Positions 18,209-56,124 of a stretch of 64,000 nt of DNA are shown here, piece after piece (position 1 is the stretch's first letter; each line of letters begins with the position of its first letter). Below the pieces are notes generated by a model. The model ran no database searches. It saw only the letters and a list, made by a program, of their open reading frames with translations, and was not told the origin of the DNA. The DNA lies in assembly GCA_016783745.1 (NCBI GenBank), contig JADHVZ010000006.1, forward strand, positions 3,397 through 67,396. The letters run 5' to 3'. Source of the DNA: Candidatus Omnitrophota bacterium (GTDB lineage: Bacteria; Omnitrophota; Gorgyraeia; JAHIPI01). The position numbers and the translations under genes were made by a program.

Positions 18209-18345
18209 GTCACCAGGTCACCCGTCACCAGGTCACCAAAATCCTATGTGAAATATCTTGGGTTTCAAAGTCACCCGTCACCAGGTCACAAGGGGTTTTC
18301 TTATCCTTTTCTCGTGTGACCTTGTGACGTGTGACCTTGTGACCC
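18209..18345. repeat. REP-like dyad element, 'gtcacc' family: tandem gtcacc(a/c)ggtcacc words plus a palindrome gtcacccgtcaccaggtcacaagg-[loop ggttttcttatccttttctc]-gtgtgaccttgtgacgtgtgaccttgtgac
   Basis: Seen directly; related copy with the same loop word (ggggttttcttat) at 28907-28970. Confidence 0.8.
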
Positions 18346-18362
18346 TTGTATTTTCCAAGAAC

Positions 18363-18441
18363 TGGTCGGGGGGACCAGATTCGAACTGGCGACCTCTTGC
18401 ACCCCAAGCAAGCGCGCTAAACCAAACTGCGCCACCCCCCG
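18363..18441 (-). tRNA. tRNA-Pro (anticodon GGG), genomically encoded CCA, C1-G72 pair and A73 discriminator
   Basis: Minus-strand cloverleaf traced by hand: acceptor CGGGGGG/CCCCCCG, D-stem GCGC, anticodon stem CTTGC/GCAAG with loop TTGGGGT, T-arm GCCAG-TTCGAAT-CTGGT, then ACCA. Confidence 0.8.
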
Positions 18442-18445
18442 GTTT

Positions 18446-19444
18446 TTATAAATGTTCGATCTTCGGAGACCTCATCATAAGGTCTTTTACTACGTCCTTT
18501 GGGGATTTATCTTTATATATTACGTTATAGATCTCGCGCGTGATCGGCATATCCACGCCGATTTTCTGCGAGAGCCGGTATGCCGATTCCGTAGTCGTCA
18601 CACCCTCTACTACCATCTCAGTCTCTTCCACTATTGCTTTGGCCCGCTTGCCCCTGCCAAGCATCTCACCAAACCATCTATTCCTGCTGTGCGGGCTTAT
18701 ACATGTTGTTATAAGATCGCCCATACCGCTTAATCCGGCGAATGTCTCCCGCCTTGCTCCCATAGCAACTCCCAGGCGCGTGATCTCCGCAAGGCCTCTG
18801 GTTAAAATAGCGGCTTTTGTGTTCGCGCCGAACCCCAGACTATCTGATATTCCCGCGGCAATGGCAATTATATTCTTTAGAGCGCCCCCTAATTCGACAC
18901 CCGTTAAATCATCGCTGGAATATACCCTCAGCTTATCTCCGGCAAGAACATTCTGCACTTCCCTGGCCAGATTCAAGCTCCTGGAAGATGCCACTATTGT
19001 CGCGGGCATGCCCTTAGCCACCTCGATCGCTATGCTGGGGCCTGATATTGCCGCGATCTTCCTATCTTTGCCAAGGACATCCTCTATCAGCTCTGACATC
19101 CTCATCAATGTCCTACCTTCAATGCCCTTAGCGGCAGAGACCAGAATAGACGCATCTGCCAGAACACCCTTAAGGCGCGGCAGTATGTCACGCAAATATT
19201 TTGACGGGATAGCCAGGATAACTATGCCTGCTCCGCTTAAGGCCGGCTTTAAAGACGGTGTTATATTGACTTCGGCGGGGATAGCAATACCTTTCAGGAA
19301 TTTTGTGTTTTGGCGGGTCTCTGATATGGATCTTATATAATCCTCAAAAACACCCCACAAGGATACATCAACGCCTTTTTCCGATAGACGTATCGCTAGA
19401 GCCGTCCCCCATCCCCCGTCACCTAATATGCATACTTTATTCAT
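18446..19444 (-). CDS. gpsA: NAD(P)H-dependent glycerol-3-phosphate dehydrogenase
   Basis: 332 aa; MNKVCILGDGGWGTALA Rossmann N-terminus. Confidence 0.9.
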   Translation of the reverse strand: MNKVCILGDGGWGTALAIRLSEKGVDVSLWGVFEDYIRSISETRQNTKFLKGIAIPAEVNITPSLKPALSGAGIVILAIPSKYLRDILPRLKGVLADASILVSAAKGIEGRTLMRMSELIEDVLGKDRKIAAISGPSIAIEVAKGMPATIVASSRSLNLAREVQNVLAGDKLRVYSSDDLTGVELGGALKNIIAIAAGISDSLGFGANTKAAILTRGLAEITRLGVAMGARRETFAGLSGMGDLITTCISPHSRNRWFGEMLGRGKRAKAIVEETEMVVEGVTTTESAYRLSQKIGVDMPITREIYNVIYKDKSPKDVVKDLMMRSPKIEHL

Positions 19445-19508
19445 ATTACTACGCTAATTTTATGCTATAAATTTACCATGTAATATTATATTAGTCAAGG
19501 GGGAAAGT

Positions 19509-19540
19509 AAAAAGTCCCCGGTTTTATCCGGGGACTTTTT
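19509..19540. terminator. Bidirectional intrinsic terminator: AAAAA-gtccccgg-ttttat-ccggggac-TTTTT
   Basis: 8-bp GC-rich stem flanked by A5 and T5; 35 nt downstream of the minus-strand ORF ending at 19575. Confidence 0.7.
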
Positions 19541-19574
19541 CGGAGGTACAGGGGTATGGATGAGTCCGAATCCC

Positions 19575-20063
19575 TTAAGAGATCTCTTTGGCAACAGCAA
19601 CAACCGCTAAGTCCATTTTAAAGGAATGAACGAATGCTATGCTGTACACATATTGCCCAACTATGGCGTAACATGTGCCTGCGGTCTTACATAGAAGTGT
19701 ATCCTCTCCTGTGAAGGAGCTGTGCCTTCTTAGTATATGAAAGTGCTTCTTTTTCCATGTATTGCTTGCTTCTTTAAGTTCTCTAAGGCTTTGCATGTCC
19801 TTGGGGCTTTTCAATAAGACCTTCTTCCTTACAAAATAAGTACATCTCCTCTCGATACGCGCCAATATGCCGTCTTTAGAGACAAGCTCTTTTATGTACA
19901 AGCGACGCTTCTTATTGCCTTTTTGAGTGAGATTTCTGTACAATATTTCTCTCATTTTAAGTATCCGCCTTCGCGGCCTCCATAAGTACTTAAAACTTTT
20001 TAAAGCTCTTGAATTAATTGGTAAAAAAAAATTCGCACTTTCTGTACCATATAAGTATACCAC
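19575..20063 (-). CDS. Hypothetical highly basic protein (162 aa, K/R-rich) in an AT-rich insert; true start may be internal (MREIL..)
   Basis: Longest ORF in a ~650-bp AT-rich (~38% GC) segment between plsY and gpsA; followed by a clean terminator; no confident family assignment. Confidence 0.35.
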   Translation of the reverse strand: MVYLYGTESANFFLPINSRALKSFKYLWRPRRRILKMREILYRNLTQKGNKKRRLYIKELVSKDGILARIERRCTYFVRKKVLLKSPKDMQSLRELKEASNTWKKKHFHILRRHSSFTGEDTLLCKTAGTCYAIVGQYVYSIAFVHSFKMDLAVVAVAKEIS

Positions 20064-20108
20064 AAGAAGGGGGCAGCGTCAATGGACCAAATCTTACTTT
20101 TTTAACTC

Positions 20109-20729
20109 TTAATTCTTATGGGCGCCTATCTTGTTTTCATTACCGGCAAGCAGCCTTTTTATGTTACTCTTATGCTTGTAACTTATTATTATACAGATAG
20201 TTATGGCAAGTAGTACATTTTCTAGCCTATCGCCCATTAGAGCCGCTACTACGGGCAATGCCACCACTAAATGGAGTGACGCTAAAGATACATATTTGGT
20301 AAAAGCTAATGTTATGAAAAAGATTATGACCGCGGCTATCATGGCCTTCGGCATGAGTATTCCCAGTACCCCACAGCTTGTCGCGACACCTTTACCGCCT
20401 TTGAATTTTAAAAAAAAGCTCCAGTTATGGCCGCATACAGCACATAGTCCAAGCAAGGTGCGATACATCTCTATAGTGATGATCGCATTGTCATTATAGA
20501 AATAAGTTGCGATAAAAGTAACGGCTAGCACCCCCTTCAATATATCCACTATCAAGGTTATCAGCGCAGGCAGCTTTCCTACGGTCCTCAGCACATTTGT
20601 TGCCCCCACATTGCCGCTGCCCGCTTTGCGGACATCTATGCCTTTGATCTTTCCCATTAAATAGCTGGTCGGGATCGATCCTAATATGTATGCGGAAACC
20701 ATACCGAGTAGCGCGTATATTATGGCCAT
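20109..20729 (-). CDS. plsY: Glycerol-3-phosphate acyltransferase (acyl-phosphate dependent)
   Basis: 206 aa, 5 TM; GSGNVGATNVLR signature. Confidence 0.9.
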   Translation of the reverse strand: MAIIYALLGMVSAYILGSIPTSYLMGKIKGIDVRKAGSGNVGATNVLRTVGKLPALITLIVDILKGVLAVTFIATYFYNDNAIITIEMYRTLLGLCAVCGHNWSFFLKFKGGKGVATSCGVLGILMPKAMIAAVIIFFITLAFTKYVSLASLHLVVALPVVAALMGDRLENVLLAITICIIISYKHKSNIKRLLAGNENKIGAHKN

Positions 20730-20741
20730 TTCTTCTCCTGC

Positions 20742-22073
20742 TTATTTTTTATTCTTCTTCCGTTTTATTCTTATCCTTATCGGCACACCTGTAAGCCCCA
20801 GTTCATTCCTTAAAATATTTTTGATGCACTCTATATAATCACCTGAGACATTGCGCGGGTCATTGACCGATACCTCAAAAGTAGGCGGGGCCCCATCCTC
20901 CTGCTTCATGCCCTCTATCTTTATTAATTTACCGGAACGCACAAGCGGCACCTTATCGCTCATCTCTATTAGCTGCCGGATCCGCTTTATTTCATCGTCG
21001 GGAAACCTGGCCGTGATGTTTCTGAAGACCAGGCTTATAAGGGAGAATACATCCTCTAAGTTAAGGCCTGTTTTACAGGAGGTAAACAATACCGGTATGC
21101 CCCTGAGATATTTCATCTTTCTTACAAGCGCGTCCTGGTATTTAGCCATCTCAAATCCTGATATAAGGTCCCACTTATTGACGATGAGAAAAGAACCCTT
21201 CCCTGCCTCTTCCACAGAGCTTAGTATGCTCATATCGTCTCTTGTCAGCCCGTCATAAGCGTCTATCATGATCAAACTTATATCGCTTCGATCTATACTT
21301 TCTTTCGCCCTTAACATCCCGTAAACATCTACGGCGTCGTGTACCTTTCTTTTGTGGCGCATACCGGCCGTATCGACAATAATATAGTCGGTGTTCTGTC
21401 TCTTAAGATGTATGTCTATAGAATCCCTGGTAGTACCCGGTTCCTCGTGGACGATCACCCTCTCCTCATTTATTATCTTATTCACGAATGATGATTTTCC
21501 GACATTCGGCCTGCCGACTATCGCCACTCTTATGCCGGTCTCCGCGGGGCTTTCGTCGATCGACTGAGGCTTGATCCTTCCCGCGATGCTCTCGAGCAGC
21601 GTCGATATCCCGATATTATGGATCGCGGAAACAGGGTAAAGCTCGCCTATGCCGAAGGAATAAAATTCGCTTACATTCTCCTCCAATTTCTCATTATCCA
21701 CTTTATTCACGACGAGCACGATGTCCCCGCCGGATCTTCTTAAGACGGACAATATCTCCTCGTCCAGATTCGTTATTCCGTCGGTCACATCGCAGACAAA
21801 AAGTATTATATCAGCGCTTTCCAGCGCTATCTCGATCTGCCTTTTGATCATGCCGGAAATATGGTCGACGCGCCCAAAATCCAGTCCGCCGGTATCCACC
21901 AGCTCAAAGCTATATCCTTCCTTTTTAACTAAAGCGCTCACCCTGTCCCTGGTGGTGCCGGATTTCTTTTCGGTTATCGAGTGCCGCCGTCCGACGATCC
22001 TGTTAAACAGCGTCGATTTACCGACGTTAGGCCTTCCTATGATCGCGATCCTACTTATGCTTGACTGTTTCAT
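20742..22073 (-). CDS. der: Ribosome-associated GTPase Der/EngA (tandem GTPase domains + KH-like domain)
   Basis: 443 aa; two G domains (GRPNVGKST each with DTAG/NKxD). Confidence 0.9.
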   Translation of the reverse strand: MKQSSISRIAIIGRPNVGKSTLFNRIVGRRHSITEKKSGTTRDRVSALVKKEGYSFELVDTGGLDFGRVDHISGMIKRQIEIALESADIILFVCDVTDGITNLDEEILSVLRRSGGDIVLVVNKVDNEKLEENVSEFYSFGIGELYPVSAIHNIGISTLLESIAGRIKPQSIDESPAETGIRVAIVGRPNVGKSSFVNKIINEERVIVHEEPGTTRDSIDIHLKRQNTDYIIVDTAGMRHKRKVHDAVDVYGMLRAKESIDRSDISLIMIDAYDGLTRDDMSILSSVEEAGKGSFLIVNKWDLISGFEMAKYQDALVRKMKYLRGIPVLFTSCKTGLNLEDVFSLISLVFRNITARFPDDEIKRIRQLIEMSDKVPLVRSGKLIKIEGMKQEDGAPPTFEVSVNDPRNVSGDYIECIKNILRNELGLTGVPIRIRIKRKKNKK

Positions 22074-22611
22074 TTAACATCCTGTTTGTACGCACCAGAT
22101 AATAGATGCCTGAGGCAACCGTGAACAAGGCCGCCGCGCTCCATATGATATTAGAATAATTGAACCTTAAAAGAACGGCCAGGATCGTCATCATCTGCAA
22201 AAAAGTAGTGAATTTTCCGATCAGGCTTGGTTTGAATTCTATGGACCCGAACATCATCAATATCGCTGAAGCTCCGGTAAGTATGAATAAGTCTCTTGTT
22301 AAAACTATTATGAGGACCCAGGGCGGTATCCTGAGATGGCCGGGCACGGTGGATACAAATGTAAGGGTTATAAAGCTTACTACGATCAGGAATTTGTCGG
22401 CGAGCGGATCTAAAATGGCTCCCAGCCGACTCGCCTGTCCGTACCGGCGCGCTATATATCCGTCCACTGCGTCGGTAATAATAGCCGAGATAAAAATAGC
22501 GATAGGCAGGCCGGCCAGCACAGCATTATCCGCGCGGTAATACAGCATGGATAATACAAATAACGGCGTCAGCAACAACCTTATAAAAGAGAATTTATTG
22601 GCAAGATTCAT
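22051..22611 (-). CDS. pgsA: CDP-diacylglycerol--glycerol-3-phosphate 3-phosphatidyltransferase (CDP-alcohol phosphatidyltransferase family)
   Basis: 186 aa; DAVDGYIARRYGQASRLGAILDPLADK = D-G-x2-A-R-x8-G-x3-D-x3-D motif. Confidence 0.85.
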   Translation of the reverse strand: MNLANKFSFIRLLLTPLFVLSMLYYRADNAVLAGLPIAIFISAIITDAVDGYIARRYGQASRLGAILDPLADKFLIVVSFITLTFVSTVPGHLRIPPWVLIIVLTRDLFILTGASAILMMFGSIEFKPSLIGKFTTFLQMMTILAVLLRFNYSNIIWSAAALFTVASGIYYLVRTNRMLNETVKHK

Positions 22612-22655
22612 AATTTGAAGCTACTATATCACATGGCTATATCAAAGTCAATCAT

Positions 22656-22767
22656 TTGGGGACGTGTGAGAAGGGGACGGTCCAAAAGGGGACAGGTCAC
22701 TTAGATAGTATGGTGTGTCCCCTTTTGACACGTCCCCAAATGACACGTCCCCTTCTCACACGTCCCC
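22656..22767. repeat. REP-like dyad element, 'ggggacg' family: ggggacgtgtgagaaggggacggtccaaaaggggacaggtcac-[loop]-gtgtccccttttgacacgtccccaaatgacacgtccccttctcacacgtcccc
   Basis: ~110-bp imperfect palindrome, each arm carrying three ggggac words; abuts the stop codon of the truncated ABC ATPase. Confidence 0.8.
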
Positions 22768-22773
22768 TTTTTG

Positions 22774-23280
22774 CTACGGTTCATCCAGAAGAAGGATGTC
22801 CGCCTTCTGGATCAATGAAGCTGATATCATGATCTTCTGGTGTTCCCCGGAGCTCAGCGTGCCCATATCCCGCTCTTTAAAACGGCTCATATGAACGGCT
22901 TCCAGGGCCTCATCGACTTCGCGCTCATCTTCCGCGGTCACCATGGAAAAAGGATTGAGGTACGGATACTTGCTCAAAAGGATAAATTCATGAACTTTAA
23001 AAGGGTACGCTCTCGCGTCAGGCTGGGGAACATAACTCATCTCTTTGGCGAGGTCTTTCTGCTTAAAATGCCTTACTTCGGTTCCATTGATCTTTATACC
23101 GCCGGTCCCGCCGGTAAGGATCCTTATCATATTCTTTAGAAGCGTGGTCTTTCCCGCCCCGTTAGGGCCGACTATTGTCAGATATTCGCCCTTCTTCACG
23201 GAAAATCCTACGGAGCGCAGGATATCGCCGTTGCCGTAAGAGTATGAGAAATTTTCTACTTCTATAGCGAATTTTTCCAT
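22774..23280 (-). pseudogene. ABC transporter ATP-binding protein (iron-siderophore/cobalamin FepC/BtuD-like), C-terminally truncated: reading frame stops immediately after Walker B (..ILLLDEP*)
   Basis: 168 aa with Walker A GPNGAGKTT, Q-loop, signature LSSGEHQK, Walker B ILLLDEP then TAG; lacks D-loop/H-loop (~60-80 aa); stop lies 7 bp from palindromic element 22656-22767. Confidence 0.55.
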
Positions 23281-23286
23281 GTGGGA

Positions 23287-24144: not shown

Positions 24145-24253
24145 AGCTTCAACTCTTCTTTCGATAAATAATTATACCATAAAATGAGGTTAAAACGTAA
24201 CTTTTCCTCCGCTGTCTGCACTACGTTGATACCCGGTATATCTTTAAAAACGG

Positions 24254-24365
24254 GAGGGGACAGACACTTTTTTTGAAGAGTTGGGACAGACACTTTTTGT
24301 AGCTATATAAGTAACCTCAAAAAGTGTCTGTCCCTGACAACGCCGCAAAAAAAGTGTCTGTCCCC
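24254..24365. repeat. REP-like dyad element, 'gggacagacac' family: two gggacagacacttttt words on each arm around loop tagctatataagtaacctc
   Basis: Left arm ggggacagacactttttttgaagagttgggacagacacttttt; right arm is its reverse complement with a different inter-word spacer. Confidence 0.85.
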
Positions 24366-24371
24366 TTCATG

Positions 24372-24950: not shown

Positions 24951-24952
24951 GA

Positions 24953-26746: not shown

Positions 26747-26771
26747 AATTCTGATTTTTGAGTCAATTTGA

Positions 26772-26820
26772 GGTTACGAGACGTTACGAGAGGTTACGAG
26801 AAGTTACGAAAGGTTACAGA
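26772..26820. repeat. Tandem decamer array (ggttacgaga cgttacgaga ggttacgaga agttacgaaa ggttacagaa), 'gttacgag' family
   Basis: Five direct 10-bp units filling the lepA/phosphohexomutase spacer; same word at 48704-48734. Confidence 0.85.
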
Positions 26821-26827
26821 ATCCCTC

Positions 26828-28250: not shown

Positions 28251-28889
28251 TTACCCCCTTAAATATTTTATCGCCTTTTTCATGTCAGGCGCGTTAAAAA
28301 TGTATGTACCGGCTACAAGAATATTCGCGCCGGCTTTAACAGCTTCCCTCGCGGTTATTTTGCTTATTCCGCCATCGACCTGTATATCGCCTTTATAGAT
28401 CTTTCTTAATTCTCTGATCTTCGGCATCATATCCCTCATAAATGCCTGGCCGCCGAATCCCGGCTCAACCGTCATGATCAGCACCATATCTATTTTTTTG
28501 AGATTCTTACGGATCATATCTATGCCGCTCTTAGGCTTTAGCGAAACACCGGCCTTTATGCCGGATGACTTGATGCGCGATAAAAGAGCGCCTATATTTC
28601 TCTCTGATTCCGCGTGGATGGTTATGATATCGCTTCCCGCCTTCCTAAACCCGTCTATATATTTAGAAGGCTCTTTTATCATAAGGTGCACATCAAGAGG
28701 TATGCTGGTGATCTTTCTTAAGTCACGTACCACCGAAGGCCCTATTGTAATATTAGGTACGAAGTGGCCGTCCATGATGTCGACGTGTATCATGTCCGCT
28801 CCGGCTGCCTCCGCTCTCTTTACCTCGCTGCCAAGTTTGCTGAAGTCCGCGGCGAGTATGGACGGTGCAATAAGTATTTTTCTAGCCAT
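28251..28889 (-). CDS. rpe: Ribulose-phosphate 3-epimerase
   Basis: 212 aa; IAPSILAADF...HVDIMDGHFVPNIT signature. Confidence 0.9.
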   Translation of the reverse strand: MARKILIAPSILAADFSKLGSEVKRAEAAGADMIHVDIMDGHFVPNITIGPSVVRDLRKITSIPLDVHLMIKEPSKYIDGFRKAGSDIITIHAESERNIGALLSRIKSSGIKAGVSLKPKSGIDMIRKNLKKIDMVLIMTVEPGFGGQAFMRDMMPKIRELRKIYKGDIQVDGGISKITAREAVKAGANILVAGTYIFNAPDMKKAIKYLRG

Positions 28890-28906
28890 TGTTTTCTCCG
28901 TAATTA

Positions 28907-28970
28907 CAAGGTCACCAGGTCACCAGGGGTTTTCTTATACTGGTGACGTGTGACTTTGTGACCTTGTGAC
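28907..28970. repeat. REP-like dyad element, 'gtcacc' family (aaggtcaccaggtcaccagg-ggttttcttata-ctggtgacgtgtgactttgtgaccttgtgac)
   Basis: Shares arm words and loop word with 18209-18345. Confidence 0.8.
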
Positions 28971-28999
28971 TCATGTATTTTAACATTATAATTCATTCT

Positions 29000-32900: not shown

Positions 32901-33693
32901 TATGTACAGCTTTTGCTATGCTTGAAGTAAATTTTCCGACTGCCTTATTAAGCGTACTCTTCCCCTCGTTCTCTCCTATCACTCTTATGAGCGCGCTGCC
33001 TATTATCACTCCATCGGCCACTCTTGAAATATCCCGCGCCTGCTTCTCATTGGAGACGCCAAAACCTACGCACACAGGCTTGTCTGTAAGGCGCTTGATC
33101 CTCTTAATATTCTTTGAGATATGCGATGGGAGCGCTGCCCTGGCGCCGGTAACGCCCGTAAGTGAGACATAGTATATGAAGCCTTTTGAATGCCTCGCTA
33201 TGATCTTCAGGCGGTCGTTCGTGCTTGTGGGTGAGGCAAGAAATATCAAATAAAGATCTTGGGCCCTGGCTGCCCCTTCAAGCTCGGCTGCCTCCTCAGC
33301 GGGAAGATCCGGGAAGATAGCGCCGTCAACGCCGCATTTCACCGCGTCACGGACAAATTTCTCAACGCCATAATGATAGACAGGGTTCAGATAACTCATA
33401 AGAATGATAGGGATCTGACTCTTTCCCCTGATCTTCTTGACACTCTTTAATATTTTATGCAATGTAGTTCCTGATTTAAGTGACCTTTCGGATGATCTCT
33501 GGATGGTAAGCCCGTCAGCCATCGGGTCGGAAAACGGTACTCCCAGCTCGACTATGTCCACTCCGGATCTTTCAAGCTCTAAAACTATTTTTTCGGTCGC
33601 GGCCATGGACGGATATCCCGCGGTTATATAGACGATGAATGCCTTGCGCTTATCCTTGCTCAGCTTATTGAATGTTTTTTTTATTCTATTCAT
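32893..33693 (-). CDS. trpA: Tryptophan synthase alpha chain
   Basis: 266 aa; TIM barrel with YITAGYP and GFGV motifs. Confidence 0.9.
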   Translation of the reverse strand: MNRIKKTFNKLSKDKRKAFIVYITAGYPSMAATEKIVLELERSGVDIVELGVPFSDPMADGLTIQRSSERSLKSGTTLHKILKSVKKIRGKSQIPIILMSYLNPVYHYGVEKFVRDAVKCGVDGAIFPDLPAEEAAELEGAARAQDLYLIFLASPTSTNDRLKIIARHSKGFIYYVSLTGVTGARAALPSHISKNIKRIKRLTDKPVCVGFGVSNEKQARDISRVADGVIIGSALIRVIGENEGKSTLNKAVGKFTSSIAKAVHNE

Positions 33694-33785
33694 TGGTTAC
33701 GGTTCTCGGTTTTCGGTTTTCGGTTCTCGGTTCTCGGTTGCAGGATTCTTCCCCCTACCCCCTACTACCTACCCCCTACTACCTA
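33694..33785. repeat. Composite tandem array filling the whole trpB-trpA spacer: (ggtt[c/t]tc)x5-6 followed by (taccccctactacc)x2
   Basis: Seen directly; the ggttttc/ggttctc heptamer is shared with elements at 53052-53125 and 56047-56124. Confidence 0.85.
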
Positions 33786-34988: not shown

Positions 34989-35055
34989 GGCCGTAGGTTT
35001 ATAGGTTATATAGAAACTCACTTAACCGTACACCGTAAACCGAAAACCGTACACC
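34989..35055. repeat. Low-complexity element of the 'ccgtaaacc/ccgtacacc' family (aaccgtacaccgtaaaccgaaaaccgtacacc), preceded by taggtttataggttata
   Basis: Same words, in inverted-repeat form, at 56047-56124. Confidence 0.7.
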
Positions 35056-37442
35056 TAAATAATGACCAGGCTCTGCTTCTTCCCTGTTAATGGGAAAGAC
35101 AGCTTCAGTATACCGTCTTTGTGCTTAAAATTTATCTCGCTTCCGTCAAGTGAGACACTGTACGGCTTTCGTATTTCTATCAGTATCTCGCAATGACCGC
35201 CCGCGCTTCCGTGCAGGGCAAGCCTCAATTCTCTGTCCGTGCATGAAGCCTTAAGTATCTCAGCCGTGGAATACCTGATCTTCGCCCGCCTGGAAACAGG
35301 CACATTGAGCGGAAGAACATAAGAGCTCCTGTTGGGCATAAGAAGTTTATTTTCCTGCGGTATCGTGGCGGACTTATTTAGACCCGGGATCCGGAAGTTC
35401 AAAGTCACTTCATGCGGTTCGTCGTTGAAATTCGACACAAACAGGAATCCGTATTTTTTATTAGACCTCATCACAGCATGAACATCATTCACTGATGTCT
35501 TTATGCAACGCGGCAGATTAAGGATCTGCATAAAATGGTCTATCAATCCTATTTGATAATCGAGAGTATGCTTCACTGCGAACCCGAGCAAAAGCAATTT
35601 GCCTTTCTTTATCTTCTTAAGGATACCGCACGGTTTTCTGTCTCTGGTCCGCGCTACTACCCGTCTCTTTTTAGACTCAAATACCTTGATATCACCTTCT
35701 ATCAAATAATCTTTTCCGGTGACAAATACCAGATTATCATTTACCGTCTCGCCTATACTGACATCAAATTCTTTTAACAAAGACTCTTCTCTTAAGAGCC
35801 CCATATTTTTATTAGGCGCTGTGGGATTCATGATAAGCGTTCCGCCTCTTTTGACGTACTCGGCTAATTTGAGTTGTGTCGCCTGATCCATATAGTCCAT
35901 TGAAAAGACCCACATGGCGGGAATTTCCTGCAGATCCCTTATCTTCGCTCTTTCAATATCCACCAGATTATAATTATAACCATTGATCATCAGCAGCCTT
36001 GCTATTCCGTCAAAGAAGAAATTATCTCTCGCAAGAGCCATCTGGTCTATGACTGAACCTTTGAGATAACCGGTCTCATAATAAGGCGCATAGAGGCCCA
36101 TTGCAAAATCATAATTTTTCTTTGTATCCGCTATCTGACTTCCGAAGGTCTTCACGAGATCACCGACATCCTCCATAGGCTTGATCTTGGAGTTCTTTTT
36201 TCCCTTACTGTCTATGGGAGCCTGCCATTCATGGTAGGTTCCTCTAAAACCCAATCCCGGCGGATTCAGCCCCCCGCAGAACATATACGCGTTAAGGCCG
36301 TTCAGGCCGTGCCCGATTGAGTATCTCATAAGTAAATTGATATCATTAGGATATATTCTGGGCCGGTCATTCATGCCTCCTACCTGGGCCTCCAAACAGA
36401 CCCTGGGTGCGGTTTTATCGCCTATCATATTCAATCCCTCGGTCATGAGGATAGCGTCATGAAAATTTTCAAAGTTGAGATTTCTCATCTGATACGCGCC
36501 GCCAAAAATAATATGCGGCGTATATTTTATAAAATCCCTGTATTGAAGAACGGTCATCAGCCCCTGATTACCTCTGGCGCATATGTTATAGTCCCAGAAC
36601 ATCGGGATATTGGCTACGAAAGGAAGGTCGATTTTCGCGCCCTTCGCGCGCTTGGATAAAGAATTGTAGTAGCGGGCGTAAAAATCTCTATAGAAATGTA
36701 CCCAGTCCCAGCATCTTCTTACGCCTTCTTCATCCACGTCACCTTTCGGCTGCGGGATCTCCTTAAAGCTCGTATGATTCGTGTAATACCTGTCGTTAAG
36801 GGCGGATAGCTCACCGCCATAAAGCGCCTTCAGGTATTCTCCGTACATCTCGGTCGTAGCCTTATTATAATCCGCGTCACCCATGACCCAATTCATCATG
36901 CCGATCTCGTTATCCAGCTGCACCATTATCACCGGCCCGCCTTTTGTAAAAGAGTTCTTATGGATTATCGGCAGGATCTTCGAATACCACCCGGATACGC
37001 GCTCCTGAAAAACAGGATGCATATAAGAGACCATGGCCTCGTGCGGAACATTCGATCCTTTTCTGTTTTTCGCGCGCGCTTCCTGGTAATTTTCCAGAAA
37101 CCAGGGCGGGGTGCCTTCACCCTTTATCTCCGCGTTAGAAGTAGGGCCTATCCTGGCTATAAGATTAAAGCCGGCGTTTTTGACAAGCTTGATAAAATAT
37201 ATAAGATCCTTTTGAGGAGAAGTCTTACCGGTGAAATCAAACTGGCCTTCTTCATGCTCGTGCCAGGCCCACGGTATGTAAGTGCTTATAGTATTTAATC
37301 CCGTTTCCCTGGCCTTCCTCAGCCTATCCACCCATTTATCCTTCGGTATCCTGAAATAATGGATCTCGCCCGAATAGAGGAAAAAAGGCTCATTATTCAA
37401 CAGGATCTTACCGTCTTTCAATTCGATCTTATTCCTGCCCAT
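35055..37442 (-). CDS. Glycoside hydrolase family 35-like beta-galactosidase
   Basis: 795 aa; N-terminal GEIHYFRIP...GLNTISTYIPWAWHE...FDF...GP...AE...PPWFL and acid/base VQLDNEIG match the GH35 catalytic TIM barrel. Confidence 0.75.
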   Translation of the reverse strand: MGRNKIELKDGKILLNNEPFFLYSGEIHYFRIPKDKWVDRLRKARETGLNTISTYIPWAWHEHEEGQFDFTGKTSPQKDLIYFIKLVKNAGFNLIARIGPTSNAEIKGEGTPPWFLENYQEARAKNRKGSNVPHEAMVSYMHPVFQERVSGWYSKILPIIHKNSFTKGGPVIMVQLDNEIGMMNWVMGDADYNKATTEMYGEYLKALYGGELSALNDRYYTNHTSFKEIPQPKGDVDEEGVRRCWDWVHFYRDFYARYYNSLSKRAKGAKIDLPFVANIPMFWDYNICARGNQGLMTVLQYRDFIKYTPHIIFGGAYQMRNLNFENFHDAILMTEGLNMIGDKTAPRVCLEAQVGGMNDRPRIYPNDINLLMRYSIGHGLNGLNAYMFCGGLNPPGLGFRGTYHEWQAPIDSKGKKNSKIKPMEDVGDLVKTFGSQIADTKKNYDFAMGLYAPYYETGYLKGSVIDQMALARDNFFFDGIARLLMINGYNYNLVDIERAKIRDLQEIPAMWVFSMDYMDQATQLKLAEYVKRGGTLIMNPTAPNKNMGLLREESLLKEFDVSIGETVNDNLVFVTGKDYLIEGDIKVFESKKRRVVARTRDRKPCGILKKIKKGKLLLLGFAVKHTLDYQIGLIDHFMQILNLPRCIKTSVNDVHAVMRSNKKYGFLFVSNFNDEPHEVTLNFRIPGLNKSATIPQENKLLMPNRSSYVLPLNVPVSRRAKIRYSTAEILKASCTDRELRLALHGSAGGHCEILIEIRKPYSVSLDGSEINFKHKDGILKLSFPLTGKKQSLVII

Positions 37443-47979: not shown

Positions 47980-48055
47980 TTTTTACCTCACATTTATTTC
48001 TATGTGAATTTTCGATATAAGCAAAGAGGTAAGTATTATAACATAATCATTGAAA

Positions 48056-48676: not shown

Positions 48677-48703
48677 TATTCTATTGGATAGCTGGATACT
48701 GAT

Positions 48704-48734
48704 GTTACGAGACGTTACGAAAGATTACGTAACC
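48704..48734. repeat. 'gttacgag' family element (gttacgagacgttacgaaagattacgtaacc) in trpC-trpF spacer
   Basis: Direct gttacga words followed by inverted cgtaac; related to tandem array 26772-26820. Confidence 0.75.
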
Positions 48735-48743
48735 TCAATATAA

Positions 48744-50533: not shown

Positions 50534-50542
50534 TCTAACTCC

Positions 50543-51109
50543 CTATTTGATCTGCAGAAAATTATTAAGGATCTTTTTCCCTTCGCCGGTCAATATCGAT
50601 TCAGGGTGAAACTGTACGCCGTATATATGATGGTCCTTATGCTTTAAGGCCATTATCTCTTTTTCCTTTGTCTCGGCAGTGATTAAAAAGCAATCGGGAA
50701 GGGAACTTCTTTCCGCGATAAGCGAATGATATCTTGTAGCTTCAAAAGGGTTTTTTACACCTTTAAATATATCTCTTCCGTCGTGCATAATGGCCGATGT
50801 CTTACCGTGCATCAGTTTTTCCGCCCTTACTATGACTCCGCCGAAGACCTCCGCTACCGCCTGATGGCCCAGGCACACCCCAAGGATAGGTATTTTACCC
50901 GCGAAGGCCCTGATGGCAGGCTCTGATATACCGGCATCCGAAGGATAGCCCGGCCCGGGAGATATTATTATCCGCTCCGGATCCAGTTTTTCCATATCTT
51001 TAAGATCTATCTTGTCATTACGATAGACTTCAAGTTCCGCCCCAAGCTCACCAAGGTATTGCACCAGGTTATACGTAAACGAATCATAATTATCTATTAC
51101 CAATATCAT
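50543..51109 (-). CDS. trpG: Anthranilate synthase component II (class I glutamine amidotransferase)
   Basis: 188 aa; GVCLGHQ catalytic Cys motif and HPES. Confidence 0.85.
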
Positions 51110-51110
51110 C

Positions 51111-52577
51111 TTACGCTTCCTCTATGGCCTTTATCAGCGCCATTGCCTTATTCAACGTCTCCTGATATTCCTTATCCGGATCGGAATCAGCCACTATTCC
51201 CGCGCCCGCCTGGATATACGCCTTGTTCTTCTTGACCAGGATAGTCCTTATAGTGATACAACTGTCTATATTCCCGGAAAAACTGAAATAGCCGACACAT
51301 CCTGAATAAGTCCCGCGCTTCAGATTTTCGAGCTCATCAATGATCTCCATAGCTCTTATCTTAGGGGCGCCTGTCACAGTGCCCGCCGGAAACGATGCCC
51401 TTACCACATCATATATGTTACTGTCCTTTGACAATCTGCCCGTGACATCGCTGACTATGTGCATGACGTGGGAATACTTCTCCACCTTCATCAGTTCGCC
51501 TACGCGCACACTGTTAAACCTTGATACCCTTCCAACATCATTCCGGCCAAGATCCACTAGCATGATATGCTCGGCCCTCTCTTTTGGGTCCCCCAGCAGC
51601 TCTTTCTCAAGCCTGCTATCCTCGCTCTTGTTTCTTCCTCTCGGCCTTGTACCCGCGATCGGCCTTAACTCTATTTTGCCGTCTTCACATCTTACCATTA
51701 TCTCAGGGGATGAACCGATAAGCTTGATGTCTTTGAATCTTAGATAATACATATAAGGCGAAGGATTTATAGAACGCAGCTGTCTGTATATACTGAAGGG
51801 GTCTTTTTTTCCAAGATCGGCTTCCAGTCTTTGAGATAGAACTACCTGTATGATGTCCCCGTTCTTTATATACTCCTTTCCTTTTCTTACGATATCGCCG
51901 AAAGAATTTTTTGTAAAATTCGATCTTATCTTAATTTTGCGGTTTACGGTTTGCGGCTTACGGTTTACTTTCGTGTTCTTCAGAAGCGTTTTTTCTATCT
52001 TAGCTATCTTCTTCAGGGCCTCGCTGTACGCCGCTCGCGGGTTGCGCTTCACATGGACGTTTGAGACTATCTTTATCTTATGCATAATATGGTCGAATAT
52101 CAGAAGCGTGTCGGTAAGTACAAAAATGCAGTCCGGCACTTTAAGATCGTCCGGATTCCTGTCAGGCAGTCTTTCAAAAAACCGAACCATATCATAACCG
52201 ATATAGCCGACAAGGCCTCCGCAAAAACGGGGCAGCCCCTTGATACTTACAAACTTAAACTGAGACATCAGATTTTTTATTTCTTCAAGCGGATCCGAGT
52301 CCGCCTTATAGCGCCTGAGCTTCTCACCCTCCCTTATCTCCACATCCATTCCCTTGCTCCTGAATACCAGTGAAGGATTTGACCCTAAAAAAGAGTACCG
52401 CGCTATTTTTTCTTCACCCTCTACGGACTCAAGAAGATATGAATAATCTCCGGAGTCTATTTTTAAAAAAGAAGATACCGGCGTCTCCAGGTCAGCGCTT
52501 ATTTCCTTATATACGGGAATGACGTTCCCTTTTTTTGAGAGACCGATGAATTCTTTTTTACTCGGATATATCATCAA
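51111..52577 (-). CDS. trpE: Anthranilate synthase component I
   Basis: 488 aa; chorismate-binding C-terminal domain ([10 protein letters not shown]). Confidence 0.9.
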
Positions 52578-52954
52578 TACACCTTGCCAGGATCAAAGAC
52601 TTTCTCTTCTACTGTTTCCAGTCCGCCTTCACCCGTAGCGCGCCTGTAGTAGCATGTAAAGTAGCCCGCATGGCAAGCGGCGACTTTTTGTTCGATCTTA
52701 AGGAGCAGTGACTTTCCCTCGCAATCCATAAGCGCTTCCTTGAGTATCTGGATGTGACCCGAGGTCTCGCCTTTCATCATCAGCCTGCTCTTGGACCTGC
52801 GAAAAAGATACACCTTGCCTTCCTTGAAAGTCATCTCAAGCGACTCCTTGTTCATATAGCATAGCGTCAGCACCTTGCCGGAATCACTATCCTGAATAAC
52901 AGCAGGAATAAGTCCGTCATCGTTAAATTTTAGTTGTTCAATAAATTTGTCCAT
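52574..52954 (-). CDS. hisI: Phosphoribosyl-AMP cyclohydrolase (monofunctional HisI)
   Basis: 126 aa; LIPAVIQD...MNKESL...GETSGH motif; stop overlaps trpE start by 4 nt. Confidence 0.85.
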   Translation of the reverse strand: MDKFIEQLKFNDDGLIPAVIQDSDSGKVLTLCYMNKESLEMTFKEGKVYLFRRSKSRLMMKGETSGHIQILKEALMDCEGKSLLLKIEQKVAACHAGYFTCYYRRATGEGGLETVEEKVFDPGKVY

Positions 52955-53051
52955 GTTTGCTCCTTAGGTAATGATGATATCCGCTCGGTCGCTTAACAAG
53001 GATTCCACACATGTTAAATGTGCTCTCGAATCGTTTGTTATTTCGCAGAGA

Positions 53052-53125
<74 letters not shown>

Positions 53126-53159
53126 AACATGAATTTGCCAAATAAGCTTACTGTTAGTA

Positions 53160-53287
53160 AATCACAAATAACAAATTACAAATAACAAACAAATAACAAG
53201 CACCAAATTCCAAACACATTGTTTTGAATTTTGAATTTGAGATTTTGAATTTGTTTGTGATTTGTTATTTGAAATTTGTTATTTCCG
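53160..53287. repeat. AT-rich dyad element built from 'caaataacaa' words and inverted ttgttatttg words
   Basis: cacaaataacaaattacaaataacaaacaaataacaag...ttgttttgaattttgaatttgagattttgaatttgtttgtgatttgttatttgaaatttgttattt. Confidence 0.75.
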
Positions 53288-53323
53288 TATTTTATGTAAT
53301 TAACACGTATTTCACTTTTTATT

Positions 53324-54088
53324 TCAAATTCGGACAATAACCCCTTTATCACGCAAGTATTCTTTCGTTTCCTGTATCGTATATTCCTTAAAATGAAAGA
53401 TCGATGCGGCGAGGGCCGCGTCAGCCTTGCCTTCTGTCAGCACTTCGCGCATGTGTTCTATATTGCCGCATCCGCCTGAAGCTATGACGGGAATGTTTAC
53501 GGCCTCGCAGATACTTCTCGTCAGTTCGATATCGTAGCCGTCCTTTGTGCCGTCAGCGTCCATGCTTGTAAGAAGGATCTCACCGGCGCCCAGATCCTCC
53601 ACCTTACGGGCCCACTCTATAGCGTCTATCCCCGTCGGAGTCCTGCCGCCGTTAACATATATCTCCCACTTCGCGCCTTCATCCTTTTTTCTCTTCGCGT
53701 CTATCGCCACCACTATGCACTGGCTTCCGAATTTATCCGAAGCCTCCTTCACGAACTCCGGCCGCTTGACAGCCGAAGTGTTAATGGATACTTTATCACA
53801 GCCCGCATTGAGCAGGTCTCTTATATCATCAATATCTCTTATCCCGCCCCCGACCGTAAACGGCATAAACACGCATTTTGCCACACGCTCGACTACATCT
53901 ATCATGATCTTGCGCTTCTCATGAGAAGCCGTTATGTCCAGAAACACAAGTTCATCGGCACCTTCATCATTATAGACCTTTGCCTGCTCTACGGGGTCTC
54001 CGGCATCGCGCAATTGGAGAAATTTTACGCCCTTTACCACTCTACCCTCTTTCACATCAAGGCACGGGATTATTCTTTTTGCAAGCAT
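53324..54088 (-). CDS. hisF: Imidazole glycerol phosphate synthase cyclase subunit
   Basis: 254 aa; RIIPCLDV... Confidence 0.9.
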
Positions 54089-54801
54089 ATTGAAATAGCC
54101 TCCTTTAGATCAAGCGCGCCCTCGTAAAGCGCCTTCCCCACTATTACGCCGTACAGATTCTTCCTGTCGAGAGCTTTAAGTCTTTTTATATCATCTAATG
54201 ACGATATTCCGCCGGCGGATATTACTGAAATATTGACCTTGCTCAAAAAATCATCCAGCCCGTCAAGATTCGGGCCGCTCAATGTACCGTCCACGGTTAT
54301 ATCCGTGTATATGACCGCGAAGGCCCCGAGGCCTTCTACTTTCTTTGCCAGATCGATAGCCTTTACAGTCGACGCCTTAGTCCAGCCTTGAAGCATTACA
54401 AGACCGTCTCTGGAATCGATCGATACGATTATTTTCTCTCCGTATTTATTTATGGCATCCTTTACAACGTCGACCTCTTCCACGGCCTTACTCCCCAAAA
54501 CCACCTTTGAGGCACCGGATTTAAAAGCTCCGCTAATGTCTTTCTCGCTTCTAAGCCCGCCGCCAAGCTCAACGGGTATGCCGACTGCTTTTACGATTTT
54601 CGCGACCGATCCCGAATTCTTCGGCTTACCGGCCAGAGCGCCGTCCAGATCCACTATATGCAGTGTACTTGCCCCCTGATCCTGCCAGTTTTTCGCGATC
54701 CTCACCGGATCATCGGAATAAACCTTTACCTGCTGGTAATCTCCCCTTGTTAAACGCACTACCTTTCCGTCCTTCAGATCGATGGCCGGTATTATCTGCA
54801 T
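54070..54801 (-). CDS. hisA: 1-(5-phosphoribosyl)-5-[(5-phosphoribosylamino)methylideneamino]imidazole-4-carboxamide isomerase
   Basis: 243 aa; [17 protein letters not shown]. Confidence 0.9.
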
Positions 54802-55406
54802 TATAACCTCATAAAATTCTCCAGAAACTTTAATCCCGCTTTCTGGCTTTTCTCGGGGTGAAACTGGACAGCGTACAGATTCTCATCCCAGACCATGGAG
54901 GCAAAATCCCCGCCATAGTCAGTAGCGGCCGCGACTATGGCGCTGTCTTTCGGCCTTACATAATAAGAATGCACAAAATAAAAAAATGAATCCTGCTCAA
55001 TACCGTTAAAAAGAGAACATCCGCTTTTTTTTATCTTTACCTGATTCCATCCTATCTGCGGCACCTTGATGCCTCCTGAGGAGAATTTGACTACATCTCC
55101 TTTAAGGATACCCAGGCCTTCGCATCCGCCGCCTTCTTCGCTTCTCTCAAAAAGCAGCTCATACCCTAAGCATATTCCGAGATATGGCTTTTTTCTCTTT
55201 ATCTCGTCCTTAAGCGGCTCGATAAGGCCCAATCGTTTAAGGGCGTTCATCGCGTCCTTAAAAGCGCCCACTCCGGGTAGTACTATCTTAGCCGCCCCGC
55301 TCAAGTCCGCGCCCTTCTGGGTGATCACGACATCGCCACCTAAATATTCCAGGGCCTTAGATACGCTGCCTAAGTTGCCCATCTCATAATCAATAACAGC
55401 TATCAT
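54801..55406 (-). CDS. hisH: Imidazole glycerol phosphate synthase glutamine amidotransferase subunit
   Basis: 201 aa; MIAVIDYEMGNL...GICLGYELL (catalytic Cys). Confidence 0.9.
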   Translation of the reverse strand: MIAVIDYEMGNLGSVSKALEYLGGDVVITQKGADLSGAAKIVLPGVGAFKDAMNALKRLGLIEPLKDEIKRKKPYLGICLGYELLFERSEEGGGCEGLGILKGDVVKFSSGGIKVPQIGWNQVKIKKSGCSLFNGIEQDSFFYFVHSYYVRPKDSAIVAAATDYGGDFASMVWDENLYAVQFHPEKSQKAGLKFLENFMRL

Positions 55407-56014
55407 TCGTCCGCGATTATCCCTTTTGTGGATGGAATTTCTTTTCTTCTGGGGTCTATCTGAGTAGCATGGTCAAGGGCCACGCCAAATGCCTTGAAAA
55501 CCGCCTCAAGCACATGGTGCAGATCACTTCCTGTAAATATCTCAACATGCAAATTTATGTTAAGCTTTTTAGCGAAACTGTCAAGGAAGTCTAATCCGTC
55601 ATTAAACGTATAACCCTTTTCCTCGCCCAGCGCCGGTATGATTGTCTGAGGAAAATGTTTTTCAAACGCAAACCGGTTGCTGATGTCCACCACCACCTTT
55701 GCCCTTGCCTTATCCATTGGGATTTCCGAAGAACCGAAACGTTTGATGCCCTTACAATCCCCCAGCGCTCTTTTAAAGGCCATGCCCAAAGCAATGCCTA
55801 TATCCTCATTAGTGTGGTGCATATCCACATTTAAATCGCCCGTCGCCTTCAGCTCAAGATCAAATAGCCCGTGGAAGGTAAACAATTCCAGCATGTGATC
55901 AAGAAAGCCTATACCGGTCTTTATGTCGGAATCCCCATTACCGTCTAAAACCAGTTTGCCGGATATATCAGTTTCTTTTGTCTTTCTTTGTATTTCAGCG
56001 GTCCTTGGTTTCAT
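55403..56014 (-). CDS. hisB: Imidazoleglycerol-phosphate dehydratase
   Basis: 203 aa; metal-binding HH/E motifs (HTNEDIGIALG, HHVLEAVFKAFG). Confidence 0.9.
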   Translation of the reverse strand: MKPRTAEIQRKTKETDISGKLVLDGNGDSDIKTGIGFLDHMLELFTFHGLFDLELKATGDLNVDMHHTNEDIGIALGMAFKRALGDCKGIKRFGSSEIPMDKARAKVVVDISNRFAFEKHFPQTIIPALGEEKGYTFNDGLDFLDSFAKKLNINLHVEIFTGSDLHHVLEAVFKAFGVALDHATQIDPRRKEIPSTKGIIADE

Positions 56015-56046
56015 GGATTGACCTTTCTTGACATATTTTTTAGGTT

Positions 56047-56124
56047 AACGGTGTACGGTTTTCGGTTTACGGTTTTCAAAATCCCACGGTTGTTCCGTAA
56101 ACCGTACACCGAAAACCGTAAACC
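56047..56124. repeat. Dyad element of the 'ccgtaaacc/ggttttc' family: aacggtgtacggttttcggtttacggttttc-[aaaatcccacggttgtt]-ccgtaaaccgtacaccgaaaaccgtaaacc
   Basis: Near-perfect ~30-bp inverted arms in hisD-hisB spacer. Confidence 0.85.

Follow-up and report, generated by a model that had tools for sequence, protein, structure and literature searches.

The intergenic spacers of a 64,000-nucleotide stretch of DNA from a Candidatus Omnitrophota metagenome-assembled genome (contig JADHVZ010000006.1; hereafter the window) carry elements that are a palindromic, many-family variant of bacterial "heptamer repeats." Each unit is 7 to 8 nt long: a 5-nt core that does not vary (GTCAC, CGGTT, GGGGAC, and others) is joined by 2 to 3 free bases. 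Units are stacked head to tail. In Omnitrophota, arrays mostly come in pairs, one inverted relative to the other and built on the same core, and together form a palindromic unit of 70 to 150 bp. The arms change length by whole units, and the same families occur at many nonorthologous places. We consider, with moderate confidence, that these elements are dispersed, nonautonomous repeats of the heptamer simple-repeat class that resemble MITEs (transposable elements of the miniature inverted-repeat type) and the hairpin-forming doublets (REPINs) of repetitive extragenic palindromic (REP) sequences, although membership in the REP family is not established.

Short-period arrays are concentrated in the spacers of the window

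When arrays were called with Tandem Repeats Finder (period 6 to 11, at least 2.8 copies), the window contained 14 short-period arrays, whereas first-order Markov simulations of the same DNA averaged 0.07 and never exceeded 1. Of the 14, 13 fell in intergenic DNA, which totals 3,426 bp, and a single one fell in the 60,574 bp that are coding (3.8 versus 0.017 per kb, a roughly 230-fold difference). All spacers were read: between 18 and 57 kb, repeats are present in 10 of the 13 spacers of at least 45 bp, and no such repeats were seen in any spacer outside this region. Together with the unit-number variation described below, this excess of head-to-tail 5- to 11-nt units over chance and in noncoding DNA is what characterizes long simple sequence repeats (LSSR) and short tandemly repeated repetitive (STRR) sequences.

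The original prediction, made from the window alone, had listed 11 intergenic segments as sharing one architecture, namely, a short word repeated on one arm and mirrored on the other. The listed words were present at all of the coordinates given, but the common architecture held only in part. Seven segments (18203-18349, 22658-22766, 24256-24365, 28907-28971, 53052-53125, 53159-53287, and 56039-56124) are strong dyads by RNA folding (-27 to -73 kcal/mol; z -5 to -16 relative to shuffles) and have the form of a REP or REPIN, i.e., a dispersed extragenic hairpin of two inverted repeats. Two more are weak dyads (34989-35059, z -1.0; 48704-48734, z -2.5), and the remaining two are unmirrored direct arrays (26770-26820, z +1.6; 33700-33785, z -1.5). 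Most elements would form the very stable hairpins that had been expected; the last two are unstructured. An in-frame array in trpE (51936-51968) and a CGGTT dyad about 1 kb beyond the right end of the window had escaped the list.

The striking diversity of words was likewise borne out to a degree: there are several families, but some collapse into the core superfamilies GTCAC, CGGTT, and GGGGAC, with the words given as ggtt[t/c]tc and ccgtaaacc being variants of a single CGGTTNN core. Words do recur within the window: GTCAC and GTTACGA each occupy two loci and CGGTT(NN) five. In the readable part of this genome, about 75 kb, there are six CGGTT and two GTCAC loci. The placement at the gene boundaries trpB/trpA, trpC/trpF, hisF/hisI, hisD/hisB, and phosphohexomutase/lepA was confirmed, and the flanking genes are probably cotranscribed.

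The window contig is present in four independent assemblies at 99.97 to 100% identity, arrays included, which rules out the assembly artifact that had been named as a possible refutation. Short assemblies from the window's own species begin and end within the arrays flanking trpB, as expected if the sequence is multicopy.

A fixed core, free bases, and a constant polarity

In a set of 50 CGGTT units (13 arrays, ten loci), the entropy of positions 4 and 5 was 0.3 to 0.5 bits, compared to 1.5 to 1.6 bits for positions 6 and 7. GTCAC units likewise have a fixed core and a free tail, with a period of 8 and sometimes 7, in a sample that is biased by the search pattern.

The order of the two arms was likewise fixed in every family. 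In about 20 dyads, the GTCAC array lies 5' of the GTGAC array whichever strand is read, with one exception (L208; L-numbers designate contigs or loci other than the window). CGGTT came first in 4 of 4 cases and GGGGAC in 6 of 6 cases read. A hairpin of reversed polarity would be equally stable.

The two arms of an element are not always copies of each other. They mirror each other closely in the elements at 22658 and 24256, and the element at 56039 has identical unit variants in both arms in a changed order. At 53052 and 18208, each arm is internally uniform, yet the arms are unlike each other; the 53052 element has (CGGTTTT)4 on the left and the complement of (CGGTTCT)3 on the right, and the 18208 element has GTCACCAG/GTCACCC units in one arm and GTCACAAG/GTCACAC units in the other.

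Arms also differ in unit number between closely related sequences. Relative to the window, L001, from another sample, has three extra 15-nt units (GGTCACCAGTCACCA) in the left arm of the GTCAC dyad at 28907 (L001 16048-16294, equivalent to window 28865-28911). A run of N and a 116-bp duplication lie beside these units in the scaffold; the difference reflects either a genuine change in length or an assembly problem caused by the repeat. Further differences in unit number were found between L093 and L131 and between L118 and L194. Differences between L085 and L086 were ruled out as array events; these are deletions of coding DNA unrelated to the arrays.

Array content is lineage specific and differs at orthologous junctions

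We compared the window with six syntenic relatives (TrpB identity, 79 to 87%), in which gene order is kept from the glycoside-hydrolase cluster to lepB, and with a control set of 80 genomes from other phyla (LepA identity, at most 65%), represented by 1.45 Mb around lepA. Period-7/8 arrays occurred at 13.9 per 100 kb in the window and its relatives (195 kb), compared to 1.5 per 100 kb in the control set. Periods 7 and 8 accounted for 27 of the 31 arrays in the window plus relatives, where multiples of three were rare, whereas periods 6, 9, and 12 dominated in the controls. Raw tandem-repeat density did not separate this lineage from the controls; the period spectrum did.

Some control genomes carry heptamer or octamer arrays of their own (L061 3678-3760 and 4666-4775, L071 11873-12053, and L074 15563-15636). 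They belong to Terriglobales, an unclassified groundwater bacterium, and Nitrospira, and their arrays include some dyads and one array within a gene. Such a design thus extends beyond Omnitrophota and is patchy across bacteria, as are the repeats described previously (PMC4679880, PMC4692102).

The spacers of the relatives contain elements of a like kind, but the junctions that carry them are different ones and the words often differ as well. The trpB/trpA spacer is 92 bp in the window, where it holds (CGGTTYT)n and (CCTACCCCCTACTA)n, but only -4, 2, 11, and 17 bp in four relatives, while L091 and L092 carry GTCCACAG/CTATGGAC-type words there. Similarly, the spacer between the M50 peptidase gene and rpe contains a GTCAC dyad in the window, a CACAGAT element in L090, and TAGCG words in L088, and it has no element in L085 (5 bp) or L091 (32 bp). 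Given that element content differs at orthologous junctions, gain and loss outpace species divergence, and the same junction is struck repeatedly. Close relatives that have kept their gene order while differing in element content thus provide natural filled and empty sites. Insertion boundaries and target duplications could not be defined from these junctions, as the relatives' spacers are not alignable.

Elements of the same families are dispersed across unrelated loci

Within 21 kb of L090, three CACAGATGATCGCAGAT (CACAGAT) elements can be aligned with one another, their nonrepeated right half included. A scan of JGI metagenomes for GTCACMAGGTCACMARGTCAC (GTCACMAG) returned at least 120 loci, several of which are syntenic with parts of the window at 42 to 79% protein identity; the loci that are named or syntenic are Omnitrophota. 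About 20 of the GTCAC metagenome loci are dyads, subsets of which have loops in common, such as ACGTAAAAGCTTTTACGT. In L145, which contains an rpmF-plsX-fabH-fabD operon, GTCAC dyads lie upstream of rpmF and in the rpmF/plsX and fabH/fabD spacers; each has a homologous loop, and one copy is inverted. The loop AGGGGTTTTCTTAT is likewise common to both GTCAC copies of the window (18203 and 28907). These are dispersed repeat families rather than unique terminators, and copies share nonrepeat loop sequence.

The dnaK/dnaJ junction carries GTCAC dyads in two Omnitrophota of different base composition, L109 (~5200-5300, 55% G+C) and L125 (652-760, 35% G+C), which reflects either long retention or repeated insertion at this junction.

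The CGGTT word was also found in phage contigs, always as a single array and never paired, and (AACCGNN)n ended 0 to 10 nt ahead of a start codon in about 17 of 43 phage cases. The same layout is seen in L092, where (AACCGNN)n stands 8 nt before a GH2 gene that lacks a Shine-Dalgarno sequence, and in the window at trpA (start at 33693), where on the mRNA strand (GAGAACC)n stops 6 nt ahead of the ATG and no Shine-Dalgarno sequence is recognizable in between (33694-33699). An RNA role for single (AACCGNN)n arrays is plausible and would echo the translation-leader-like role proposed for TAACTGA repeats (PMC4679880).

The 62-kb, 56% G+C viral contig IMGVR_UViG_3300042504_001487 contains an array of (CCTGGTGA)n of about 500 nt and three (CGGTTTT)n arrays, of which two directly abut start codons (L214 1-287; L216 5113-5157, 6405-6439, 6728-6767, and 10560-10939). 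Both viral words also occur in the window. A Pfam search with the array-rich phage contig's open reading frames (ORFs) returned a DNA methylase and nothing else.

Arrays occur in frame within protein genes

About one-quarter of the GTCAC arrays retrieved lie within long ORFs, always in the stop-free orientation. Since the opposite (GTGAC) strand or arm has TGA in every frame, genes hold one-armed arrays only (24 to 48 nt). In relatives, in-frame arrays were found in valS, hisF, leuS (three genomes), truA, and a pstB-like gene. The valS gene of a distant member of Omnitrophota (L154 224-3154) contains four separate GTCAC-type arrays, one of which runs on into ATAGCTG/AAAGCTG heptamers. These arrays, which encode motifs such as VTKSPGHKVTS, SPSHQVIKS, SLVTRHSS, and VTKSQSH, account for four insertions of about 10 to 19 residues relative to the ValRS of the window; a fifth insertion, of 29 residues, has no array. 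The hisF gene of L169 has one array, in a loop. In leuS, the array occupies the same position in three genomes and is 94% identical among them, compared to 62 to 77% for its flanks. Across the orthologous gene positions sampled, which were picked by the search pattern, arrays were 88 to 94% identical versus the same 62 to 77% for flanks.

The trpE array of the window is a CGGTT-family array, TTTRCGG x4.7, on the minus strand at 51936-51968. On the coding strand (CCGYAAA) it encodes 11 residues of the anthranilate synthase I linker that joins the N-terminal and chorismate-binding domains. It was ruled out as a length insertion relative to an ortholog at 59% identity, and the trpE of L169 has a linker of comparable length without an array. 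The in-frame arrays of valS, hisF, leuS, truA, and the pstB-like gene could not have been made by slippage alone. Overall, the elements add peptides of 8 to 30 residues to conserved enzymes and hairpins of 40 to 70 kcal/mol to amino acid biosynthesis operons.

Comparison with described repeats

Mazel reportedly described cyanobacterial STRR in 1990, and Mrazek is said to have proposed polymerase slippage as the mechanism behind heptamer simple repeats. To our knowledge, the heptamer and octamer repeats found since 1990 in cyanobacteria, Beggiatoaceae, Xanthomonas, and other bacteria have no explained origin or function.

The closest described class to the window elements is the heptamer-dominated LSSR/STRR of other phyla, which the original prediction had not taken into account. 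LSSR are built from 5- to 11-nt units, mostly heptamers, and include TAACTGA repeats in Beggiatoaceae, Cyanobacteria, and Bacteroidetes (PMC4679880), a study that also places heptamer bias on record in many phyla, and GGGNATC repeats in Xanthomonas and Nostoc (PMC4692102). Like these, the Omnitrophota arrays consist of head-to-tail 7- to 8-nt units in several word families per genome, with an intergenic bias and variable unit number, and they include occasional in-frame gene arrays as well as arrays abutting start codons without a Shine-Dalgarno sequence. They differ in that most arrays have an inverted partner array, with which they make up long hairpins of constant polarity; in a Nostoc sample of 50 kb, there were three heptamer arrays and no dyad. 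Their vocabulary is also distinct, and the phylum is new for heptamer repeats. A heptamer vocabulary common across phyla was rejected: only one of seven published words, TTTTGAA, was present here, once, and there was no occurrence of STRR1-3, TAACTGA, GGGAATC, or GGGGAYT. We found nothing relevant in the literature on repeats in Omnitrophota.

Other systems share part of the design. REP sequences, bacterial interspersed mosaic elements (BIMEs), and REPINs (PMC3116915) are also extragenic, often lie within operons, form 70- to 110-bp hairpins of two inverted halves, and occur as several families per genome in both orientations, with clusters and nested copies and no target-site duplication. The arms here, however, are tandem 7- to 8-nt or 15-nt words rather than one 20- to 40-nt imperfect palindrome, no conserved terminal tetranucleotide of the GTAG type was found, no REP-associated tyrosine transposase (RAYT) gene was found in the DNA searched, and single arms also occur within genes. 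The REP/BIME resemblance noted in the original prediction holds for location and dyads, although dyad symmetry itself is not universal. Pneumococcal BOX elements (boxA-boxB(n)-boxC) and other MITEs (PMC10969869) are similarly modular, with variable internal tandem modules and complementary ends that fold, and they cluster and insert into one another; the BOX module, in contrast, is about 45 nt rather than 7 to 8 nt, and a MITE carries terminal inverted repeats, is flanked by target-site duplications, and has a parent insertion sequence (IS), whereas the elements here have inverted arms and showed no duplication in the dyad flanks examined. Rickettsia palindromic elements (PMC10969869) are selfish repeats that enter housekeeping genes in frame and are tolerated in surface loops, albeit as whole palindromes of about 150 bp rather than one-armed 24- to 48-nt arrays.

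The WATCACW heptads bound by omega/ParB of pSM19035 (PMC9499535) are contiguous 7-bp units with a 5-nt core, direct and inverted, at 4 to 10 per site. Their core, ATCAC, is one base apart from GTCAC. The omega sites are few and lie at the plasmid's own promoters, whereas the arrays here have many cores and very many sites in spacers and coding loops.

The following combination was not found described: palindromes whose arms are tandem 7- to 8-nt words, in many families of common design and fixed polarity, spread across Omnitrophota and entering aminoacyl-tRNA synthetase and biosynthetic genes in frame repeatedly. The invariant 5-nt core with free spacers, the fixed polarity, and the in-frame entry into essential genes are new constraints on any explanation of heptamer repeats.

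Origin and possible roles of the elements

If the elements are dispersed, nonautonomous repeats, their arms would change length by slipped-strand mispairing, and new copies would arise when a factor acting in trans recognizes the core and copies an existing element. Such a factor would probably act on single-stranded or hairpin DNA, as REP/RAYT or IS200-type systems do. Selection would then leave copies where they are tolerated, in intercistronic spacers and protein surface loops. Transcribed dyads would form very stable RNA hairpins in operons and would probably act as barriers in RNA processing or stability, a by-product rather than a raison d'etre.

Several observations weigh against such dispersal. 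No transposase, RAYT, IS200/IS605, or reverse transcriptase (RT) gene was seen among the window genes or in the next 10 kb, and a crude tblastn search for IS200 TnpA in 0.79 Mb of related DNA found none, so within this DNA the check for a RAYT or IS200-like HuH transposase that had been suggested earlier came back empty. No IS element was seen at any of the loci examined, which form a partial sample. The 8-nt flanks of about 20 GTCAC dyads contained no target-site duplication, and no conserved terminal motif of the REP tetranucleotide type was present in these flanks. Within species, only changes in unit number were seen and no insertion/empty-site polymorphism. The systematic differences between arms at 53052 and 18208 fit independent arm growth better than the copying of a finished palindrome. 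Many arrays are single, and the phage CGGTT arrays near start codons look functional rather than selfish. Finally, the conservation of genic arrays above that of their flanks is suggestive of a constraint beyond selfish spread.

The main alternative, which we regard as unlikely, is growth in place without mobility, in which a spacer hairpin or chance duplicate expands by slippage in a 7- to 8-nt register and template switching copies the product onto the other arm. This would account for the unit-number polymorphisms, for the internally homogeneous arms at 53052 and 18208, and for several dyads that are palindromic through their center (e.g., ACGTAAAAGCTTTTACGT in L109 and L112); it also fits islands that resemble one long, drifting period-7 array (L093) and the heptamer bias of many phyla (PMC4679880). 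It does not account for the same cores, and even the same loops, at many unrelated loci in genomes with only 45 to 70% protein identity, for different words at one junction in close relatives, or for a polarity fixed at about 20:1. Slippage duplicates whole units, whereas here the core is invariant and the spacers vary, and arrays of 3 to 4 units in essential genes would require stepwise frameshifts. Local slippage plus template switching thus explains how the arms behave, but it leaves the common cores and loops, the polarity, and the in-frame arrays without an explanation.

A bolder and rather improbable proposal is that the arrays are the footprint of an undescribed, core-specific machinery (a nickase/transposase or a templated polymerase/RT) that writes or pastes 7- to 8-nt words with fixed polarity at nicks or breaks. 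If so, this machinery would place inverted arrays in operon spacers and insert peptides in frame into essential enzymes throughout Omnitrophota, could possibly also lie behind the similar arrays of Acidobacteriota, Nitrospirota, and Cyanobacteria, and would answer the 35-year-old puzzle of heptamer repeats.

It is doubtful that the arrays are binding sites at which ribbon-helix-helix-type proteins would read one 5-nt core per 7 to 8 bp for regulation or chromosome organization. The arrays do show the arrangement of the heptad operators of this protein class (omega/ParB with its WATCACW heptads, MetJ with its 8-bp met boxes, and ParG), namely, contiguous 7- to 8-bp units, both direct and inverted, in which a conserved core adjoins a spacer that is free to vary; GTCAC is one base off the omega core (PMC9499535), and array sequence is conserved above its flanks. 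However, more than 10 different cores would have to be read, presence varies among close relatives at housekeeping operons, and unit number varies within populations. No candidate gene for a cognate ribbon-helix-helix-type protein was seen, and the sites lie in intercistronic spacers and coding loops rather than at recognizable promoters.

Still less probable is an RNA function for the set as a whole, with dyads acting as intercistronic stabilizers, RNase III or decoupling hairpins, or terminators and (AACCGNN)n arrays acting as Shine-Dalgarno-independent leaders. Very stable hairpins within trp, his, and fab operons, the (AACCGNN)n arrays 0 to 10 nt before an ATG (6 nt at trpA and 8 nt at the GH2 gene, besides the phage cases), and the comparable proposal for TAACTGA repeats (PMC4679880) all point in this direction. 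Folding energies do not: of 28 elements, 16 are more stable when the sense strand is folded and 12 when the antisense strand is, and selection on the mRNA strand was rejected by this test of G-U versus C-A asymmetry. The lack of a strand preference fits DNA-level elements better than selected mRNA structures. Elements occur in both orientations. Junctions are empty in close relatives, and arrays also lie in coding regions. At the gathering score, Rfam 15 matched tRNA-Pro alone. On the mRNA strand, only the dyad at 24256-24365, which closes the lepA-lepB unit, is followed by a U-run (TTTTT); the other dyads lie within operons, have no U-run, and do not qualify as intrinsic terminators.

De novo, templated, polar synthesis at breaks or nicks (telomerase-like, by an RT, or by primer realignment), in which extension of both 3' ends with word repeats and their rejoining would yield W(n)-loop-reverse complement W(m), has very little probability in our estimation. 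It would explain the fixed polarity in every family, arms unequal in length or unit order (56039 and 22658), the 7- to 8-nt unit with its constant core and variable end, and in-frame gene arrays. No such enzyme is known to us or was seen here, one dyad is reversed (L208), and the conserved loops among copies fit whole-element copying better; the idea is purely inferential. Ordinary unique terminators or assembly artifacts, for which one could cite the operon-closing dyad at 24256-24365 with its TTTTT and the scaffold gap beside one array in L001, are already refuted for the whole set by four identical assemblies, words in hundreds of contigs, and mostly intraoperonic elements without a U-run.

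Whatever their origin, the elements fragment Omnitrophota metagenome assemblies and create unit-number variation, and they are thus relevant to the annotation, binning, and expression models of an uncultured phylum.

Individual elements of the window

The GTCAC element at 18203-18349 lies between tRNA-Pro and hom (-61 kcal/mol, z -5.3). It comprises direct arrays at 18208-18238 and 18270-18293, with GTCACCAG/GTCACCC units, a loop at 18294-18314, and the mirrored array at 18315-18345, with CTTGTGA/CGTGTGA units. The GTCACC word resembles a BstEII site (GGTNACC), a Chi-like sequence (CTGGTG), and an anti-Shine-Dalgarno-like sequence (UCACC), a matter of resemblance only. The second GTCAC dyad, at 28907-28971 in the spacer between the M50 peptidase gene and rpe, folds at -27 kcal/mol (sense) and -33 kcal/mol (antisense), with its left arm at 28909-28927 and its right arm at 28943-28971.

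A GGGGACG dyad occupies 22658-22766, between a truncated ABC ATPase ORF and pgsA (-73 kcal/mol, z -11.9). Its units are 15 nt long (GGGGAC + GTGTCA + 3 nt), and the right arm (22713-22766) is one unit longer than the left (22658-22700), with the loop at 22701-22712. The ATPase ORF (22774-23280, 168 amino acids), which ends 8 nt before the dyad, covers only the first ~170 positions of profiles of 190 to 400 residues and looks like a pseudogene or a deletion abutting the element. The nested GGGGACAGACAC(T)n dyad at 24256-24365 starts 6 nt past the lepB stop codon (-71 kcal/mol, z -15.8); its outer pair is 24256-24275/24346-24365, and its inner pair is 24283-24299/24319-24335.

Five direct 10-nt units (GAGGTTACGA) make up the array at 26770-26820 in the phosphohexomutase gene/lepA spacer (-3.6 kcal/mol). 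The trpB/trpA spacer (33700-33785) holds two unrelated direct arrays without a dyad, (CGGTTYT)x6 at 33700-33741 and (CCTACCCCCTACTA)x2.3 at 33751-33785. The GTTACGA array at 48704-48734 between trpC and trpF has about three units and closes in a small TTACGTAA palindrome (-11.7 kcal/mol).

The CGGTT family includes a degenerate dyad in the GH35 gene/trpB spacer (34989-35059, -16 kcal/mol), whose right arm is (AACCGTA)n (35024-35059) and whose left arm is decayed (34992-35013). The hisF/hisI spacer contains the dyad at 53052-53125 (-37.5 kcal/mol sense, -49.1 kcal/mol antisense), with (CGGTTTT)x4 on the left and, reverse complemented, (CGGTTCT/CGGTTAG)x4 on the right. It is adjoined by an A/C-rich CAAATAAC/TTTTGAA dyad at 53159-53287 (-35 kcal/mol, z -7.8), the word family of which also occurs at L092 846-1370. 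The hisD/hisB spacer holds a dyad of CGGTGTA/CGGTTTT/CGGTTTA units (56039-56124, -38.5 kcal/mol, z -7.4), and the extra dyad ~1 kb to the right of the window is at L253 11940-12021.

Genomic setting and neighboring features

The window has a G+C content of 46%, and all genes between 0.8 and 61.5 kb are on the minus strand. Its gene classes are housekeeping throughout: groES, coaX, birA, uvrB, nadC, valS, leuA/cimA, an aspartokinase gene, a thrC-like gene, hom, tRNA-Pro, gpsA, plsY, der, pgsA, lepB, lepA, a phosphohexomutase gene, rpe, M50 and M16 peptidase genes, ruvX, trpA/B, a glycoside-hydrolase cluster, trpF/C/D/G/E, hisI/F/A/H/B/D, alaS, and recA. Its TrpB is identical to an NCBI protein annotated as "Candidatus Omnitrophica bacterium," and the nearest relatives of this TrpB are annotated likewise.

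Downstream of lepB and upstream of a TonB-dependent receptor gene, three relatives have what appears, by its look, to be a cobalamin riboswitch (L085 20503-20806, L088 20520-20676, and L091 20539-20901). At that site the window has a gene for a BtuF-like binding protein and the truncated ATPase, with no Rfam riboswitch match.

A small GIY-YIG nuclease ORF (3025-3363, 112 amino acids) is followed by a hairpin at 2979-3024 (cattgcgagccccaaaggggcgaagcaatc); in the syntenic L154, neither this nuclease gene nor birA lies between uvrB and coaX. The uvrB/nadC spacer contains a 255-bp element (5375-5629) with terminal inverted repeats of ~18 bp (GCAATGTTGATA..CCCC/GGGGCTATCAACATTGC). It looks like a classical MITE, separate from the word arrays, and a related copy is present at L087 2273-2682.

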